Virus record (IMG/VR): IMGVR_UViG_3300037807_000296
Span: 1,295 to 65,294 of that record
Source: a virus
Taxonomy: Duplodnaviria; Caudoviricetes
Reading direction: 5' to 3' (one strand)
DNA length: 64,000 nucleotides
Shown here in pieces: positions 39,176-48,355 of the stretch. The notes under the pieces are model-generated. The model had not been told where the DNA came from. It searched no databases and saw nothing but the letters and a program-made list of their open reading frames with translations. The position numbers were made by a program, and so were the translations under genes. Each line of letters begins with the position of its first letter. The stretch's first letter is position 1.

Positions 39176-39381
39176 TGAAGGTTAATCTAACACAAGAATA
39201 TTATACTAGCCGAGTTCAGTTCGGAAATTATCACTCAATCACAACTCCATTTGCATCTGATACAGATAAAGCTGCAGGAAGAGAGTGGACACTTCCTGGA
39301 ACGAAAAAACTTTTCCTTGCATCTGAGATTCAAACGTTTGCAACTAAACTCGGTTACGGTGGTATATTTGAGAGTGTATGA
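39175..39381 (+). CDS. Hypothetical protein
   Basis: ORF overlapping both neighbours. Confidence 0.5.
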   Translation: MKVNLTQEYYTSRVQFGNYHSITTPFASDTDKAAGREWTLPGTKKLFLASEIQTFATKLGYGGIFESV

Positions 39382-41201
39382 AAGATAATCAAATTAAAGT
39401 GTTGAGTGATAGAGATCACGTACTATTGCGACCAGCGATGTATTTGGGATCGGTTAACACTAAACTCCACGAAGACTTTTTTCTTGAGGATGATTCTATA
39501 TCACATCAAGGTAAAGAGTATGTCCCTGCATTGGTTAAGATGTTTGGGGAGGTATTTGATAATGCTGTGGATGAAGCTATTCGTACCAACTTTGAATACG
39601 CTACGGATATCCGTGTAAAGATAACTTCTGATAGTATCACTATCAAGGATACTGGAAGAGGTATACCAGTTGAATTAGAAGAATCTACAGGAGAATATGG
39701 TCCAGTATTAGCTTGGGGACAAATGAAAGCTGGTTCTAACTTTGAAGATGATGATACTAGAATGACAGCTGGTATGAATGGTGTTGGGGCGTCTGTTGTA
39801 AATATATTCTCAACCAAATTTAAAGGTGAAACTTCAGATGGTCAACAGAAATTAGTTTACACCTCAAAAGATAATATGGATAGTAATTATGTAAAGGTTA
39901 CTAATTCATCTCTCAATTACACTCAAGTTACATTCCATCCAGATTTTTCTAGATTGGAGTGTGATGTTATAGATGATGTAACGTTGAATGTTATGAAACA
40001 GAGAGTATTAATAGCATCTATTATGTTTCCTGATATCTCTTTCAGATTTAATAATAAAAAAATACATTCTAAGAGTCCTAAACATTTTATCAATTTATTT
40101 GGGAAAGGAGCAGACGTTTTAACTGGAGGGGATGGTAAGTGGTTTGTTGGTGTTATTCCTAATGATAATGATGATTTCAGATTCTTCTCTTATGTTAACG
40201 CTCTACATATGAAGGATGGAGGAACTCATATTGATAATATTTCATATAATATAGTAAACCGTCTTAAAGATAAACTCATTAGAAAGCATAAAGGTATTAA
40301 ACCAGGAGACATTAGAAATAAGATGCAATTAGTTGTATTCTTTAGAGATTTTCCTAAATTTGAAACAAACTCACAGACCAAAGAGAGTTTGAGTAACTCA
40401 GCATCATTCATTAGGGAGTATATGGGAGATGTTGATTGGGATAGTTTTGTATATAAGTTAGCGAAGAATAAATTATTAATTGATCCTATCACAGAAGTGT
40501 TTAGAATTAAGGAAGAGTTTAAGAAAAGGCAAGAGCTTAAAAAATTAGATAAAGTCACTAAAAGGATTAAGTCAGAGAAATATTTTCCTGCTATTGGGGG
40601 AGTTGATAAGTTATATATCTGTGAAGGGACAAGTGCTCGAGTTGGTTTAATGAAAATACTCGGGAGGAGAGGAAATTCCTTTTATGAACTTAAAGGGGTA
40701 CCGTTGAATGCAGTGAACGCGTCGCAACAAAAATTCACAGCAAATAAAGAGTTATCAGAATTGTATAAAATTATTAATAATGTAGATTTTAATCGGATTG
40801 TGATTGCAACAGATGCTGATCTTGACGGTAATAAAATTACTGGTCTTTTGTTTGGATTCTTTATAACATACATGCCTGATGTAAGTGTATCAAGATTAAG
40901 AACTCCATTGATGGTCCTTAAAAAAGGAGATAAGGTTATTAAGTGGGCTTATGATATGACAGAAATTAATTCATGGACTGAAGTAGATATGAAGGGTTGT
41001 GAAGCTTTTTACGTAAAAGGATTAGGATCTTGGAGAGCAGATCAATTAAGACATGTTATTAATATTGATGGTCTAGATAATATGATTGATAATGTAATTT
41101 TTGATGATAACACTATTATCACTAGTTGGCTATCATCTAATACATCTGACATCAGAAAAGAATATGTATTAGCTAATGAATTTTCTATTGCTAAATTGTA
41201 A
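39378..41201 (+). CDS. 39: Type IIA topoisomerase large subunit (gp39+60 fused)
   Basis: HVLLRPAMYLGS, EVFDNAVDE, GMNGVG, CEGTSA, TDADLDG, KGLGS. Confidence 0.95.
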   Translation: MKDNQIKVLSDRDHVLLRPAMYLGSVNTKLHEDFFLEDDSISHQGKEYVPALVKMFGEVFDNAVDEAIRTNFEYATDIRVKITSDSITIKDTGRGIPVELEESTGEYGPVLAWGQMKAGSNFEDDDTRMTAGMNGVGASVVNIFSTKFKGETSDGQQKLVYTSKDNMDSNYVKVTNSSLNYTQVTFHPDFSRLECDVIDDVTLNVMKQRVLIASIMFPDISFRFNNKKIHSKSPKHFINLFGKGADVLTGGDGKWFVGVIPNDNDDFRFFSYVNALHMKDGGTHIDNISYNIVNRLKDKLIRKHKGIKPGDIRNKMQLVVFFRDFPKFETNSQTKESLSNSASFIREYMGDVDWDSFVYKLAKNKLLIDPITEVFRIKEEFKKRQELKKLDKVTKRIKSEKYFPAIGGVDKLYICEGTSARVGLMKILGRRGNSFYELKGVPLNAVNASQQKFTANKELSELYKIINNVDFNRIVIATDADLDGNKITGLLFGFFITYMPDVSVSRLRTPLMVLKKGDKVIKWAYDMTEINSWTEVDMKGCEAFYVKGLGSWRADQLRHVINIDGLDNMIDNVIFDDNTIITSWLSSNTSDIRKEYVLANEFSIAKL

Positions 41202-41210
41202 AGGTATATT

Positions 41211-42527
41211 ATGACAACAACGACTGAATTCTTCTCAACTGATTATGTTGATTATGCATCATATGACAATTTACGTAAAATCTGTAGTTATGTTGATGGA
41301 TTAAAAAACACATCTCGGAAGATTATTGCTACAATCATTCGAAATAATATTAATAAAGAACATAAAGTGTTACAGCTTGCTAGTAAGATGTCTGAGCAAT
41401 ATCAATACTTACACGGGGATGCAAGTGGTGTGATTGTTACATTAGCTCAACATCACATCGGTTCAAATAATCTACCACTGTTAAAAGATGCAGGAGAATT
41501 TGGATCTCGTTTCGAGCCTATTGCAGCAGCTCCAAGATACATATTTACTCACAAGGAGAGTTATTTCAACTCTTTATTCAATGATGATGATTCACCTGTA
41601 TTGAAACATCAAACATTTGAAGGAGAGGTTATTGAACCTATATTCTTTATACCAACACTACCTCTTATATTAGTTAATGGATCTGAAGGTATATCACCTG
41701 GATTTGCTCAGAAAATACTTCCTCGGAAGGTAGATGGAATTAAGAAGTCTTTGATTAATTTTATTAATGGAAAGAGTATCCGAGCCCAGAAACCACATTA
41801 CAACGGCTTCAGAGGAACTATCTCTAAAGGGGATGGAGATAGTAAGTGGTTAATTTCAGGGAGTATTAAGTTACTGTCTATGAATAAAGTAGAGATTACT
41901 GAATTACCTATTGGATATACTCTTAAATCATATGTTAACATTCTTAATGGTCTTGAAGATAGTAAAGTGTTAAAATCATTTGAAGATCGAAGTGACAATG
42001 ATCAATTTAATTTTATTGTAGATTTCTCTAGAGGGGTTATCAGAGATCGAGATGAGGGTTTTATTCTCGATACGTTAAAATTGGTTAAGAAAGTGTCGGA
42101 GAACTTCACTACAATAGATCAAGATAATAAAATTAAAGTGTTTAATAATGATGTTGATCTGCTGAAAGCGTGGGTTGATATTAAACTTACATATACTTTG
42201 AAACGAAAAAAATATATGTTATCACAAATGCAACATGAAGGAGAACTGTTGACATCGAGATATATCTTCATTAAATCTGTAATAGATGGAGATATAATAG
42301 TTACAAACACTAAAAAATGTGATATAATAAAACAAATTAAAAAAGTCAATGGGGTAATCGAGAAAGATGGGTTATATGATTACTTATTGAATATGCCGAT
42401 TCACTCCCTAACAAAAGAGAAGGTTACTATGTTGAAAAGTAAAATTAAAGTGTTGATGGTTGATATAAAATCACTGAAACGTAAGACTGAACAAGAGTTG
42501 TATATGGAGGATCTGGATCAATTATGA
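41211..42527 (+). CDS. 52: Type IIA topoisomerase medium subunit gp52
   Basis: DGLK, YLHG, AAPRY catalytic Tyr, ITELP. Confidence 0.95.
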   Translation: MTTTTEFFSTDYVDYASYDNLRKICSYVDGLKNTSRKIIATIIRNNINKEHKVLQLASKMSEQYQYLHGDASGVIVTLAQHHIGSNNLPLLKDAGEFGSRFEPIAAAPRYIFTHKESYFNSLFNDDDSPVLKHQTFEGEVIEPIFFIPTLPLILVNGSEGISPGFAQKILPRKVDGIKKSLINFINGKSIRAQKPHYNGFRGTISKGDGDSKWLISGSIKLLSMNKVEITELPIGYTLKSYVNILNGLEDSKVLKSFEDRSDNDQFNFIVDFSRGVIRDRDEGFILDTLKLVKKVSENFTTIDQDNKIKVFNNDVDLLKAWVDIKLTYTLKRKKYMLSQMQHEGELLTSRYIFIKSVIDGDIIVTNTKKCDIIKQIKKVNGVIEKDGLYDYLLNMPIHSLTKEKVTMLKSKIKVLMVDIKSLKRKTEQELYMEDLDQL

Positions 42528-43372
42528 GTACGTTAATGCTAGTTGATCAGAATCAGATTCTGCTTGGAGCTATATTTGCTACTACTAGAAAACAAGATGA
42601 TGTTGATATAAGTCTCATTCGTCATGTGTTTTTTAGATCTATTATTGCATTAAATAAAAAGTTTAAACCAGATGATATTGTGATATGTGGGGAGGGACGA
42701 TCTTGGCGGAAGGATGTGTATCCTCATTACAAAGCTCATCGTAAGAAGGGTAGAGATAAATCACCTTATGATTTTGATAAGATATTTCCAATGATCAATC
42801 AAATTATAGATGAGATTAATGAGTTTATGCCGTGGAAAGCTGTTAGTCATAAAAGGGCAGAGGCTGATGATATTATAGGTCAGTTAGGGCGACGACATGC
42901 TATGAGTGGAGGTAAAGTTGTTATCGTAAGTTCAGATCATGATTTCAAACAGCTTCACGAGTTTGGGAATGTAGTGCAATGGAATCCAACTATGAAGAAG
43001 TTGGTTAGAGGGGAACCCGGATATCTGAAGACTCATATCATCAAAGGAGATTCAGGTGACGGTATCGAGAATATATTGACTGATGGAGGAACGCTTATAA
43101 CCGAAGGGAAGAGACAGACTCCGATCAGAAAGATGTTCTTAGATGCGTGTATGGCTATGCATGAGGATGAGTTAATTGCTCATCCAGATTTATCAGAAAA
43201 TTATCAACGGAATAGGGAATTGATTGATTTGAGTTACACTCCTCAAGATATTAAATTAGATATCAATAAGATGTATGATGAATATGATGGACAAGGGGAT
43301 CGGAAAAAAGTGTTTAACTATTTCATTAAGAATAAGTTGAAGAATTTAATGGGAGATATTAATAATGTGTGA
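42524..43372 (+). CDS. rnh: RNase H / 5'-3' exonuclease
   Basis: WRKDVYPHYKAHR, EADDII, SSDHDFKQL, GDSGDGI. Confidence 0.94.
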   Translation: MSTLMLVDQNQILLGAIFATTRKQDDVDISLIRHVFFRSIIALNKKFKPDDIVICGEGRSWRKDVYPHYKAHRKKGRDKSPYDFDKIFPMINQIIDEINEFMPWKAVSHKRAEADDIIGQLGRRHAMSGGKVVIVSSDHDFKQLHEFGNVVQWNPTMKKLVRGEPGYLKTHIIKGDSGDGIENILTDGGTLITEGKRQTPIRKMFLDACMAMHEDELIAHPDLSENYQRNRELIDLSYTPQDIKLDINKMYDEYDGQGDRKKVFNYFIKNKLKNLMGDINNV

Positions 43373-45535: not shown

Positions 45536-45637
45536 ATATTTGTAATATGAACTGGAGTTACTAATTGAAATTATATATAATAATCACCAGGAAGTCTTGA
45601 TAGCAGATGGTAAATAGGTTATCAAGAAAAAAAATGA

Positions 45638-45709
45638 ACAAAAGAGATAAATAATAGTATAATATAGAAATATACAAAAGAGATAAATAATAGTATAATA
45701 TAGAAATAT
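45638..45709 (+). repeat. Perfect 36-bp tandem duplication containing GATAAATA and TATAAT
   Basis: ACAAAAGAGATAAATAATAGTATAATATAGAAATAT x2. Confidence 0.95.
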
Positions 45710-45726: not shown

Positions 45727-45849
45727 ATGAAAACATTTACACAACCACTTAGACAGGAACAAGATCACGGCACAATTACGCCCGTGTTCAGTCCTGCCAT
45801 AGTATGTTGGTTAAATGGATCGAATTATAAGGGAGGGGTCCCTGAATGA
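45727..45849 (+). CDS. Putative attenuator leader peptide (40 aa)
   Basis: SD AAGGA; MKTFTQPLRQEQDHGTITPVFSPAIVCWLNGSNYKGGVPE; 3' end overlaps the antiterminator strand. Confidence 0.75.
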   Translation: MKTFTQPLRQEQDHGTITPVFSPAIVCWLNGSNYKGGVPE

Positions 45850-45885
45850 AGTAGCTCAATACACTCATTCAAGAAGGACCCTCCC
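45831..45885 (+). promoter_or_regulatory. Antiterminator hairpin
   Basis: GGGAGGG-G-TCC..TGAATGA pairs with TCATTCA..GGA-CCCTCCC. Confidence 0.75.
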
Positions 45886-45909
45886 AGTATGAACTTGGAG
45901 GGTTTTTTT
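45878..45909 (+). terminator. Intrinsic terminator that also sequesters the downstream SD
   Basis: ACCCTCC-CAGT-ATGA-ACTT-GGAGGG followed by T7. Confidence 0.85.
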
Positions 45910-46053
45910 ATGCAAACAATTAAACAAGAGAAAAAGAATGTGTCTCGTAATTTTGTTGCGAAACATTCAAGTGAATATAATCATTCTCGAGTCTTTCGAG
46001 ATAGGAAGAATGATTATAAACGGAAGTCTAAACACGTAACAACTGTTTATTGA
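45910..46053 (+). CDS. ArfA-like small basic protein (47 aa)
   Basis: MQTIKQEKKNVSRNFVAKHSSEYNHSRVFRDRKNDYKRKSKHVTTVY; RV..........Y.RK.KH pattern; SD GGAGG. Confidence 0.62.
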   Translation: MQTIKQEKKNVSRNFVAKHSSEYNHSRVFRDRKNDYKRKSKHVTTVY

Positions 46054-46204
46054 TATATAGGATACCTAGATCCATAAGCTAGGGTATTGTAGAGGGAACA
46101 AGTCTTTTAAGATGGTAACCAACACAATTGCATAGAGACATGAGGAATTTTGTATTCCTCGTTTCTTTAAGGGTATTCGTTAGAGTATCTTTAAAGAAAT
46201 TTTT

Positions 46205-46279
46205 GCCTTGGTCGTATAATGGTTAGTACAGAAGATTGTCGATCTTCATATAGGGTTTCGATTACCCTCCAAGGCGCCA
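46205..46279 (+). tRNA. tRNA-Asp(GTC)
   Basis: Cloverleaf, GAAGA-TTGTCGA-TCTTC, encoded CCA. Confidence 0.9.
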
Positions 46280-46557
46280 AATAACCGATTGATGTGAAAT
46301 GAAGATATTTCACTAAGTCTAGCGCTGCGGTATCGTTAATACATTAGCAAGTATAATTTGGAACCTTAGTTGAGATGTATATTATCATATTCAGTAATAG
46401 CAGTGATTAAATCACTATATGATATTGTTGATTTTGTTTTCTTGGTATTGTTCTCTGTTTGTAACATTAATTCACAATTTAACATGTGTTTAATAGTAAA
46501 ACATCTCTCTTACAAAGAGGAGCCAAAGGAGCGTTACCTTTATTGGATACCAAAAAT

Positions 46558-46631
46558 GTCGTGTTAGCTCCAATTGGCAGAGCAGGAGTTTCCAACACTC
46601 ATGGTTCGGGGTTCGAATCCCTGGCACGGCG
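46558..46631 (+). tRNA. tRNA-Trp(CCA)
   Basis: Cloverleaf, loop TTCCAAC, GTTCGAATC; no encoded CCA. Confidence 0.85.
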
Positions 46632-46633
46632 CC

Positions 46634-46705
46634 CGTAATCGATCAAGAGATCATTCATCTTTCATAAAGAAGAATAGCTTGGGGCAGTACCAAGGATTAC
46701 GACCA
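46634..46705 (+). tRNA. Atypical tRNA with CAT anticodon (Met-like)
   Basis: CGTAATC/GATTACG acceptor plus ACCA; loop TTCATAA; T-loop GGCAGTA; short D arm. Confidence 0.68.
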
Positions 46706-46722
46706 TATAATGTTATAAAATA

Positions 46723-46798
46723 GGGGAATGGGCTTGGGTACCCAGGATTCTTTTGCAAGGAGTCAGCTTGATCAGTTCAATTCTGATATTCTCTACCA
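46723..46798 (+). tRNA. tRNA-Ala(TGC)
   Basis: G3:U70, loop TTTGCAA, ACCA. Confidence 0.85.
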
Positions 46799-46805
46799 GT
46801 TATAT

Positions 46806-46878
46806 GCCTGTGAGCTAATGGATAGACGCCAGCCTTCCAAGCTGTGCTGAGAGGTTTCGATCACCTCCACAGGCTCCA
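46806..46878 (+). tRNA. tRNA-Gly(TCC)
   Basis: GCCTGTG/CACAGGC, loop CTTCCAA, TCCA. Confidence 0.88.
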
Positions 46879-46903
46879 TTTAATGATTGATGTAATATAT
46901 TTA

Positions 46904-46987
46904 GTCTTTTGTTCCTGACATCAGTCTTCTAAACTGATCCAAGAGTTAGGTGGATGGCGTGAGGTTCGATTCCTCCAGAGGACACCA
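46904..46987 (+). tRNA. Atypical tRNA-Arg(TCT): D arm missing, long variable region
   Basis: Acceptor GTCTTTT/AGAGGAC plus ACCA, ATCAGT-CTTCTAA-ACTGAT, GGTTCGATTCC. Confidence 0.72.
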
Positions 46988-46993
46988 ACAAAC

Positions 46994-47079
46994 GGAAGAT
47001 AAACTAGTCAGGGACTAGACTTGTTTGCTAAACAATGTGAACCGCAAGGTTTGAATTTCGAATATTCTGTCTTCCACCA
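46994..47079 (+). tRNA. tRNA-Ser(GCT)
   Basis: Long variable arm with GCAA loop, anticodon loop TTGCTAA. Confidence 0.88.
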
Positions 47080-47084
47080 ATAAA

Positions 47085-47159
47085 GGGCCTTTAGCTTAAA
47101 GGTAAAGCACTCCACTCATAATGGATTGAGTCTAGGTTCGATTCCTGGAAGGCCCACCA
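47085..47159 (+). tRNA. tRNA-Ile2 or Met (CAT)
   Basis: Canonical cloverleaf GGGCCTT/AAGGCCC, loop CTCATAA. Confidence 0.88.
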
Positions 47160-47170
47160 TGTTACATAAT

Positions 47171-47242
47171 GCCCTTGTAGTCTAATGGAAAGGCTACAGT
47201 CTTCGAAACTGTTATATAGAGGTTCGAATCCTCTCAAGGGTA
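47171..47242 (+). tRNA. tRNA-Arg(TCG)
   Basis: ACAGT-CTTCGAA-ACTGT; followed by CTA rather than CCA. Confidence 0.85.
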
Positions 47243-47249
47243 CTAAATT

Positions 47250-47342
47250 GGAAGTCCCATCCGATGGTTGGCGACGGATGCTGTCTTGAAAACAGTTAGC
47301 TCTGAAACGGGCGTTAGGGTTCGATCCCCTAGGCTTCCGCCA
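47250..47342 (+). tRNA. tRNA-Ser(TGA)
   Basis: Long variable arm, loop CTTGAAA, GCCA. Confidence 0.9.
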
Positions 47343-47479
47343 TTTTATATACAGTTGAATAGTTATTCGCTATTGACTTTCATTATTTTATATGGTATAC
47401 TAAAGTTAAATACTATTTCATGAAATGTTATAGTGTAATATTAATAACTGTGGTAATTAATTTCAGGAGAAATGTAGAT

Positions 47480-47737
47480 ATGACAGAAGCAGAATACGAT
47501 TTATTTGAACAGTTAACGGTAGTTGATGATCAACAAGCTAAACGAATTACTGAATTAGAAGCTAGATTGGAAGAATTAGAGAATAATAACAATATACCTC
47601 TGTATTATCCGACTCCACCAACTTTTAAATCTGAATCCCCAGTGTGCAATCTATGTGGAATGGATTTTAACGGCACTACTGGATATGTATGTACTAATAT
47701 GAATTGTCCAATGGGTCGTGGGCCAATAATATCCTAA
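47480..47737 (+). CDS. Coiled-coil plus CxxC/CxxxxC protein
   Basis: SD AGGAG before ATG 47480. Confidence 0.55.
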   Translation: MTEAEYDLFEQLTVVDDQQAKRITELEARLEELENNNNIPLYYPTPPTFKSESPVCNLCGMDFNGTTGYVCTNMNCPMGRGPIIS

Positions 47738-47752
47738 CAATAGAGAAATAAA

Positions 47753-48193
47753 ATGAAAATACAAAATGTTTCATATGCTGATATTGTTACAGGAGTTCAC
47801 GTGAATCCAGGAACAAACTCAATGCTTATACAGATTGTTGATCCTGGTATGGAATTTCCGTTGCCTAATCATCAGTTCAAAAGTATGCATCAGTTTGAAT
47901 TTACAGATGTTGAATGTTCTGATGATGTTGGTTGGGAGTCTAGAATAACAAAAGCACAAACACGAGACATCGCAAATTTAATTAGAAAAGCGAAGCACGG
48001 TGATATGAATATAGTAGTTCATTGTGTTGCAGGCGTATGCCGTTCTGGTGCTGTGGTTGAAGTAGCAACGATGGCAGGTTTTGATGATATTCCTGGAATA
48101 TTCAGACTTCCAAATATATATGTTAAAAGGATGTTGATGGAAGAATTTGGATATTATGTAACAAAATCTGACTTTGATAATATATTTAAATAA
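47753..48193 (+). CDS. Cys-based (CX5R) phosphatase
   Basis: VHCVAGVCRS active-site loop. Confidence 0.85.
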   Translation: MKIQNVSYADIVTGVHVNPGTNSMLIQIVDPGMEFPLPNHQFKSMHQFEFTDVECSDDVGWESRITKAQTRDIANLIRKAKHGDMNIVVHCVAGVCRSGAVVEVATMAGFDDIPGIFRLPNIYVKRMLMEEFGYYVTKSDFDNIFK

Positions 48194-48197
48194 CATT

Positions 48198-48271
48198 TCT
48201 CCTGTCGTCTAATGGTCGGACAATAGACTTTGAATCTGTTTATGAAGGTTCGAATCCTTCCAGGAGATCCA
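48198..48271 (+). tRNA. tRNA-Gln(TTG)
   Basis: TCTCCTG/CAGGAGA, loop CTTTGAA, CCA. Confidence 0.9.
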
Positions 48272-48277
48272 ATTAAT

Positions 48278-48355
48278 GCACATGTACCAAAGTGGTTTAA
48301 TGGAACAGATTGCAAATCTGTATAGTCGTTGGTTCGAATCCAATCATGTGCTCCA
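48278..48355 (+). tRNA. tRNA-Cys(GCA)
   Basis: GCACATG/CATGTGC, loop TTGCAAA, TCCA. Confidence 0.92.

Follow-up and report, generated by a model that had tools for sequence, protein, structure and literature searches.

The ribosome-rescue factor ArfA and the translation-controlled attenuators of enterobacteria are the closest described counterparts of the phage gene reported here. The Escherichia coli arfA gene is expressed from a truncated, non-stop mRNA. As described in PMC5378476, the ArfA tail (residues 31–48) occupies the vacant mRNA tunnel, residues 25–29 contribute a strand to the RF2 beta-sheet, and Leu19, Leu24 and Phe25 contact the RF2 switch loop. ArfA truncations after Met40, which lose at least five tunnel-binding basic residues, abolish release, and ArfA truncated at Asn47 remains functional (PMC5378476). 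An ArfA domain is reported in gp30 of pelagiphage HTVC027P (PMC12753301). In print, ArfA genes of phages appear solely as annotations (PMC12753301; PMC8953757). In the trp, his and pheST attenuators of enterobacteria, a short leader open reading frame (ORF) is combined with mutually exclusive antiterminator and terminator stems, and the leader stop codon is placed so that the terminating ribosome masks the antiterminator arm. The gene in question is a basic, 47-residue ORF on the forward strand of a marine T4-like phage. It is located in a 64,000-nucleotide stretch of DNA, here called the window, that covers positions 1,295 to 65,294 of virus record IMGVR_UViG_3300037807_000296. Window coordinates are used throughout.

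The ORF is a member of DUF7230, a family that is already catalogued and is uncharacterised. A literature search found no paper naming DUF7230. New here are a link between DUF7230 and ArfA, an unannotated DUF7230 member in T4, and a putative leader-peptide attenuator that hides the Shine-Dalgarno (SD) sequence of the gene ahead of a tRNA cluster. The reading favoured here would join these elements: the peptide would belong to DUF7230 as a branch of the ArfA superfamily, would act in ribosome rescue and would be controlled by the leader attenuator. The probability of this whole explanation is put at roughly 0.4.

The ORF begins at ATG 45910 and ends at an in-frame TGA (46051–46053), in a part of the virus record that has no annotation. 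An upstream in-frame ATG (45889) would give a peptide of 54 residues. ATG 45910 is the likely start because ATG 45889 is in a hairpin loop without an SD sequence, and because the start in the closest relative found (contig L174) directly follows a T-run. The peptide matches Pfam DUF7230 (PF23876) with 35.7 bits (E = 9.7e-9; residues 12–42 on model positions 3–32), and the curated gathering cut-off of this family is 27 bits. The match is repeated at the DNA level with 33.2 bits. The peptide also matches phrog_1359 (E = 1.5e-7) and has no match in NCBIfam. The identical 47-residue sequence is contained in the protein atlas, and a phmmer search of 1.84 billion representative proteins gives 16 matches at E ≤ 1e-3, including P0006. 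In a homologue search with a word index, which limits sensitivity, the peptide has one match and the J2-1 protein described below matches only itself. It is almost certain that the ORF is a real, translated DUF7230 gene. The preliminary description, made from the sequence alone, had proposed a 47-residue basic ORF directly after a T-run, and both the DUF7230 score and the conservation at the protein level bear this out. In an AlphaFold2 prediction with the family alignment (mean predicted local distance difference test score of 73), residues 15–23 form a helix, residues 32–35 form a short helix and the remainder is extended.

P0006 is a public gene call of 116 residues on the same contig. It fuses the leader ORF and the peptide ORF, which share one frame, through two TGA codons. 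Recoding of TGA was considered and rejected. TGA ends 16 of the 45 ORFs of at least 150 codons in the window (26 end with TAA and 3 with TAG), and family members begin at the short form.

DUF7230 is matched by all 21 aligned family members. In tblastn searches with the ORF, weak but consistent matches are present in 66 phage records, mostly from large phages. The hosts of these large phages are Vibrio, Aeromonas, Erwinia, Serratia, Xanthomonas, Stenotrophomonas, Acinetobacter and Citrobacter. The annotated DUF7230 examples KVP40.0286, Aeh1 ORF324c and Xoo-sp13_17 all score above the Pfam cut-off. In the family alignment of 35 sequences, N14, K18 and D31 are invariant. V16, A17, N24 and K33 are retained in at least 90% of the sequences, and the window ORF has all four. 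It also fits the family core, N-[FLP]-V-A-K-H...F-N...R-D-R-K-N-D-Y-K-R-K-x-K-H, which ends in the basic tail Y-K-R-K-x-K-H. T4 contains an ORF of 39 codons (161581–161700 of NC_000866.4, reverse strand) that matches DUF7230 with 45 bits, above the cut-off. This ORF sits between arn.1 and arn, whose end and start, respectively, it overlaps, and is unannotated in NC_000866.4. In the four T4-like genomes examined (T4, KVP40, Aeh1 and the window), the DUF7230 gene is always 0.7–3.4 kb downstream of a gp52-type topoisomerase gene.

Four long proteins from uncultured marine phages also carry the module (L143:358-2295, L156:1228-2235, L172:1267-2409 and L179:130-1617). They are highly basic and contain repeated short motifs, a near-threshold SutA match (in one) or an N-terminal cytidylyltransferase-like domain. 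In several long proteins, an internal Met immediately precedes the DUF7230 module. At two other loci, L131 and L136, the DUF7230 gene directly follows a consensus-like promoter, TTGAC(A/T)-17-TATAAT, approximately 40 nt ahead of its start. The end of the -10 box in L131 is only 6 nt from the ATG, a spacing suggestive of a leaderless mRNA.

In tblastn searches with E. coli ArfA, ArfA genes are present in Salmonella phage Arash, Pseudomonas phage pf16, Pseudoalteromonas phage J2-1, Citromicrobium phage RXM, Ralstonia phage RsoM2USA, Erythrobacter phage XM05 and Roseobacter phage CRP-212. The J2-1 protein (P0143, annotated as ArfA) scores above the cut-offs of both families, with 41.3 bits for ArfA (PF03889, curated gathering cut-off 25.5 bits) and 28.6 bits for DUF7230. 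The precomputed domains of this protein agree with the double match. It has an ArfA head in which the KGKGS loop is absent, although it is Pfam-positive for ArfA. Over its last 21 aligned residues it shares 76% identity with L339:637-762 (BLASTP E = 2e-9), a strong DUF7230 member (63.4 bits). The CRP-212 peptide (L198:1489-1611) contains KGKGS and matches ArfA with 33.3 bits. Its second-best family among the 24,736 in Pfam is DUF7230 (13.4 bits, E = 0.09, residues 1–38). In composition-adjusted BLASTP, the CRP-212 peptide aligns with L339 at 34% identity over 38 residues (E = 8e-4) and with the window ORF at 36% identity over 33 residues (E = 0.002). Short phage-borne forms of ArfA include CRP-212, XM05, RsoM2USA, J2-1, Arash gp99c and pf16, and an alignment of five such forms is too variable for use in scans.

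The two families also align as profiles. In hhalign, DUF7230 and six short ArfA forms align over 33 co-linear columns that include all three shared motifs. The score of 20.0 is equalled by none of 200 column shuffles. When J2-1 is left out, the score is 17.8 and is again equalled by none of 200 shuffles. Against 22 diverse bacterial ArfA sequences, the tail alone aligns (13 columns, score 17.5). Shuffling of the ArfA columns reaches this score once in 300 trials, and shuffling of the DUF7230 columns never does in 300. The diverse ArfA set was taken from genome searches; the protein search and the contig scan gave near-identical enterobacterial ArfA alone. In unfiltered cross-scoring with hidden Markov models (HMMs), 13 of 38 ArfA-like sequences and 10 of 35 DUF7230 sequences are above the 95th percentile of composition-matched shuffles. 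On a whole Escherichia genome, the sole match of the DUF7230 model at E ≤ 1 (24 candidates) falls inside arfA, in the tail region, and is weak (12.6 bits, E = 0.99). None of four phages with a standard ArfA gene has a DUF7230 match, and ArfA is not matched in any of five DUF7230 phages. In the J2-1 phage, the only DUF7230 match lies within the ArfA gene.

DUF7230 shares with ArfA an N-terminal N-x-V-A-K motif (an invariant N, then hydrophobic residues and K/A), a hydrophobic-F-R segment in the centre and the Y-x-R-K-x-K-H basic tail, which is aligned by both hhalign and BLASTP. The proteins are also of similar size (37–50 residues in DUF7230 and approximately 47 in the minimal active ArfA), and their genes are found in large phages, sometimes near tRNA genes. 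Unlike ArfA, DUF7230 has no KGKGS loop, and the distance from the conserved N to the conserved Y is smaller by three residues. The spacing from N to FR is four residues longer, and the module is also present within long proteins. The window ORF differs further in that it terminates at an in-frame TGA. From these comparisons, DUF7230 is likely to be a branch of the ArfA superfamily that is carried by phages and has diverged.

The Salmonella phage Arash protein gp99c (L194:1417-1641) is annotated as 'ribosomal protein L2' and is an ArfA homologue (PF03889, 67.8 bits). Its gene is approximately 850 nt downstream of genes for tRNA-Phe, tRNA-Gln and tRNA-Asn, on the same strand.

The tail is the best-kept part of DUF7230, so that binding to the mRNA tunnel is the most defensible inference about the peptide, which probably works with an ArfA-type tail. 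Binding of the ribosome by this tail is given close to an even chance, slightly on the lower side. The head of DUF7230 is only loosely like that of ArfA, which makes recruitment of RF2 much less certain. The window peptide has hydrophobic residues at F15, V16, Y23, V28 and F29, and the predicted helix spans residues 15–23. Release-factor-dependent rescue by the peptide is rather unlikely. In the proposed mechanism, the basic tail would enter the vacant 30S mRNA tunnel of ribosomes stalled at cut mRNA ends. The peptide would then help to free these ribosomes, either with RF2, as ArfA does, or in some other way, and the freed ribosomes would go back to phage messages.

The gene is directly preceded by a G+C-rich hairpin with the form of an intrinsic terminator. 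The SD sequence GGAGG (45897–45901), 8 nt before ATG 45910, is paired with 45880–45884. The 5' arm of the hairpin spans 45872–45884 and the 3' arm spans 45897–45903, with a U-run that extends to 45909. The run of seven T (45903–45909) adjoins the ATG directly. The stem consists of seven strong pairs, three inner pairs and A/U pairs with the U-run. Its core has an energy of -14.1 kcal/mol, and the A/U extension lowers this to -19.4 kcal/mol. The leader of 206 nt folds better than 200 of 200 dinucleotide shuffles (z = -4.4). The earlier claim that the SD sequence is the 3' arm of the terminator stem agrees with both the sequence and the folds. A simple terminator scan missed the hairpin because the loop is larger than the limit of 3–8 nt in that scan. 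In Rfam, the leader has no match near threshold (rnk_leader reaches 22 bits against a threshold of 50).

The antiterminator is the minimum free energy (MFE) structure of the nascent RNA to position 45896 (-26.6 kcal/mol) and competes for the 5' arm of the terminator. The leader stop codon (45847–45849) follows the antiterminator's 5' arm at a distance of 6 nt. With a ribosome footprint at this stop codon (45832–45862) masked, the terminator is the sole strong structure. In these folding models, the geometry is that of a ribosome-mediated attenuator in which the 3' arm of the terminator doubles as the SD sequence of the next gene. When the leader is translated to its stop, the ribosome would cover the antiterminator arm and the terminator would form. 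Most transcripts would then end at the U-run before the ATG, and in read-through RNA the SD sequence would be paired. When translation of the leader is slow or stalled, the antiterminator would form before the terminator, transcription would continue and the SD sequence would be free. The downstream tRNA genes may lie on the same read-through RNA. The leader ORF has no match in Pfam, NCBIfam or PHROG, and the leader may be a sensing or arrest peptide. The locus resembles the trp, his and pheST attenuators in its short leader ORF, its exclusive stems and the position of the leader stop. It differs from them in that regulatory codons do not form a run in the leader, in that a single stem gates both transcription and translation, and in the genes behind it, which encode a rescue-factor-like peptide and tRNAs.

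The same layout is present in L174, an IMG/VR contig of 13,099 bases. The L174 peptide is 50% identical to that of the window and has the same first residues. The L174 leader ORF (1304–1432) is 41% identical to the window leader, and the first 17 residues are best kept. The residues M1, F4, T5, L8, Q10-E11-Q12 and G15-T16-I17 are invariant between the two leaders, and both contain Trp and Cys. In L174, a -10-like box precedes the leader ORF, and an antiterminator-like pairing is analogous to that of the window. Two stem pairs of the hairpin are changed in a compensatory manner relative to the window. The SD sequence is again in the 3' arm of the hairpin and is followed by a T-run and then directly by the ATG. 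Four tRNA genes are found 123 nt after the stop codon of the peptide. Genes for tRNA-Trp are downstream in both the window and L174, and a gene for tRNA-Cys is present in the window. More relatives with this layout were found neither in a scan of viral contigs with the leader peptide nor in a metagenome scan with the two closest peptides. A scan with a DNA pattern gave 118 stretches, five of which encode the motif. Three of the four distinct peptides among them are clear members, and none has the hairpin layout.

In its widest form, the proposal is that DUF7230 would be a phage-specific class of rescue factors derived from ArfA, including the T4 member, that in the window is placed (possibly with the tRNAs) behind a translation-sensing attenuator. 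The gene would be switched on when host translation falters, for example through decay of host mRNA or through a defence that cleaves tRNA or mRNA. This wider proposal is unlikely in full. If DUF7230 is ArfA-like, a function could be assigned to a family that is widespread in large phages, namely to keep ribosomes free during infection. The phages concerned infect Vibrio, Aeromonas, Xanthomonas, Erwinia, Serratia, Acinetobacter and Escherichia, and the T4 member makes the function testable in the best-known phage-host pair. If the attenuator operates as proposed, one stem would both terminate transcription and mask the SD sequence, and translation of the conserved leader peptide would decide its state. 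A rescue-type factor, perhaps with phage tRNAs, would then be tied to the state of the host translation apparatus.

The observations that weigh against the ArfA-branch, rescue and attenuator explanation concern both the peptide and its control. None of the 21 DUF7230 members, including the window ORF, matches the PF03889 model at E ≤ 10, and this model finds no match in the whole phage record. The window ORF scores 1.9 bits on the ArfA HMM, which is under the 95th percentile of the null. The KGKGS motif, which the preliminary description had noted as missing from the ORF, is absent from all 35 aligned DUF7230 members, where R-D-R-K-N-D-Y is found instead. The DUF7230 profile has no match at E ≤ 10 among solved structures, ArfA included, and phmmer searches of these structures with the ORF give only chance-level matches (E > 1). 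The HH-suite probabilities are low (17–33%), as expected for profiles of only approximately 40 residues. Residual doubt about the kinship arises because J2-1 stands alone among phage records and could have arisen as a chimera, with an ArfA head joined to a DUF7230 tail, and because all of the sequences are short and basic. By the criteria of the ArfA family itself, the ORF is not an ArfA. In the leader, the terminator state is more stable at equilibrium (-34.2 kcal/mol for the full RNA, against -28.8 kcal/mol with the antiterminator enforced). The leader, with one Trp and one Cys, lacks a run of regulatory codons. L174 is the only relative that shares the layout. At the other 19 loci inspected, no SD sequence lies inside a terminator stem, so the layout is a trait of this lineage and not of the family. 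RNA-library contigs bridge the terminator and the ORF, but they are not proof of transcription because DNA carry-over is possible. At 55 of 65 viral DUF7230 loci, no tRNA gene is present within 1.5 kb, and in T4, KVP40 and Aeh1 the gene is between gene 52 and asiA and not at tRNA genes.

The preliminary description is partly supported overall. It had aligned the ORF with ArfA by eye, and its alignment of N..., FRxR and YxRKxKH is reproduced by hhalign and by the bridges through J2-1 and CRP-212; membership in PF03889 is not (0 of 21). A profile comparison with ArfA is similarly divided. The short ArfA forms align better than all 200 shuffles in hhalign, and the Pfam ArfA model gives no match.

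An alternative to release-factor-dependent rescue, put only slightly lower in probability than the favoured reading, is that DUF7230 is a general basic binding module, for the ribosome, RNA, DNA or RNA polymerase, that serves early host take-over. The likeness to ArfA would then reflect old common descent with changed function, or a swapped tail. The module is found within proteins of 336, 381 and 646 residues and at the C-terminus of cytidylyltransferase-like proteins. The 646-residue protein has a match to the SutA RNA-polymerase-binding domain of 29.2 bits, just under the cut-off of 29.3 bits. These settings fit a general binding module better than an A-site factor beside RF2, yet the free-standing members have the size of the minimal active ArfA. 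The ArfA head, with its hydrophobic patch and KGKGS, is poorly retained in DUF7230, but the alignment to short ArfA forms is co-linear over the full length and CRP-212 and L339 are similar from the first residue. In T4-like phages, the DUF7230 gene is among the early take-over genes (arn, asiA and motA), which is congruent with a general module. The absence of co-occurrence of ArfA and DUF7230 in the 10 phage genomes checked weighs against such a module. It is very improbable that the peptide is an effector of the host type I restriction/anticodon nuclease complex in the manner of T4 Stp. Stp (PF08133, a PrrC activator) is likewise a tiny T4-type early peptide, and its faint N-terminal likeness to the window peptide is not significant. 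The two have a common N-F...H...F spacing at the N-terminus, and a link to tRNA damage would suit the position beside tRNA genes. The hhalign score of 11.8 over 12 columns is, however, equalled by 9 of 200 shuffles. Stp forms a separate family without a DUF7230 match, the ORF has no PF08133 match, and T4 carries both genes on opposite sides of gene 52.

For the control region, it is improbable that the hairpin is simply the terminator of an upstream unit, with low constitutive read-through, damping by the masked SD sequence and no sensing by the leader. The terminator state is the global MFE structure, but the nascent RNA folds into the antiterminator before the terminator can form. The missing run of regulatory codons would suit a plain terminator, as would the L189 member, which merely follows a terminator just upstream of a separate SD sequence. 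In both the window and L174, however, the leader stop is within a ribosome footprint of the antiterminator arm, and the leader is conserved as a protein (41% identity) while the stems covary. That the peptide ORF is untranslated and the RNA structure alone matters is hardly tenable. The SD sequence is hidden in a stable stem, as this would have it, but the Pfam match exceeds the cut-off and the conservation is at the protein level across phages of many hosts, including T4.

Four sets of metatranscriptome contigs bear on the leader region. The X12 record 1 and X14 record 4 contigs, from two metatranscriptome libraries of one study, span the terminator and the whole ORF, as read-through transcripts would. 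The X16 and X17 contigs stop at 45897 and 45863, respectively, and cover of the ORF is absent or thin. These stops are not counted as evidence of termination because they are at differing places and come from RNA libraries alone.

Genes for tRNAs are present within 1.5 kb at 10 of the 65 viral DUF7230 loci, always on the same strand. These 10 loci represent 8 of 49 distinct peptides. The association of DUF7230 with tRNA genes is recurrent but far from universal. A putative attenuator before the gene and tRNA genes after it are found in the window and L174; T4, KVP40 and Aeh1 differ in having no nearby tRNAs. The preliminary description had placed leader, ORF and tRNAs in one operon. This is plausible: the leader, the ORF and all seven tRNA genes of the window are on one strand, and the RNA-library contigs join the leader to the ORF. 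Hairpins (46140–46200) and promoter-like sites are present between the ORF and the later tRNA genes. The hairpins are directly before the gene for tRNA-Asp (46205), where they could act as a further terminator or mark a site of processing. Six of the seven ARAGORN tRNA calls are supported by Rfam.

The virus record from which the window is taken has 65,294 bases and a CheckV completeness of 37%. The window has a G+C content of 33.6% and uses the standard genetic code. The phage is T4-like, and a T4-type DNA polymerase and an ATP-dependent DNA ligase are encoded elsewhere in the window. Near-identical DNA is present in marine and seawater metagenome runs from many studies. The coordinates of the features around the ORF are given in Table 1.

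Table 1. Features of the window in and around the DUF7230 locus.
Feature	Position	Strand	Remarks
Topoisomerase II large subunit	39378–41201		
gp52-type topoisomerase subunit	41211–42527		
Exonuclease	42524–43372		Small ORFs, then the leader region, downstream
Perfect 36-bp tandem duplication	45638–45709	+	Each copy with a TATAAT -10 box
Leader ORF, 40 residues	45727–45849	+	AAGGA 6 nt upstream
Antiterminator (predicted)	45831–45885	+	45831–45841 pairs with 45876–45885; 10 bp, one bulge
Intrinsic terminator hairpin and U-run (predicted)	45872–45909	+	3' arm includes the SD sequence GGAGG
Gene for 47-residue basic peptide, DUF7230/phrog_1359, ArfA-like	45910–46053	+	Conserved core N14 to H42
Two overlapping hairpins with T-rich tails	46140–46200	+	Terminator-like sites between the ORF and the first tRNA gene
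Seven tRNA genes (Asp, Trp, Met, Arg, Ser, Gln, Cys)	46205–48355	+	ARAGORN

In a promoter scan, promoter-like sites within the tandem duplication are found at 45635–45663 and 45671–45699. The X12 and X17 metatranscriptome contigs contain a one-copy form of the duplication in which 45638–45673 is skipped. Because the one-copy form is present in these contigs, the copy number of the duplication varies in nature.

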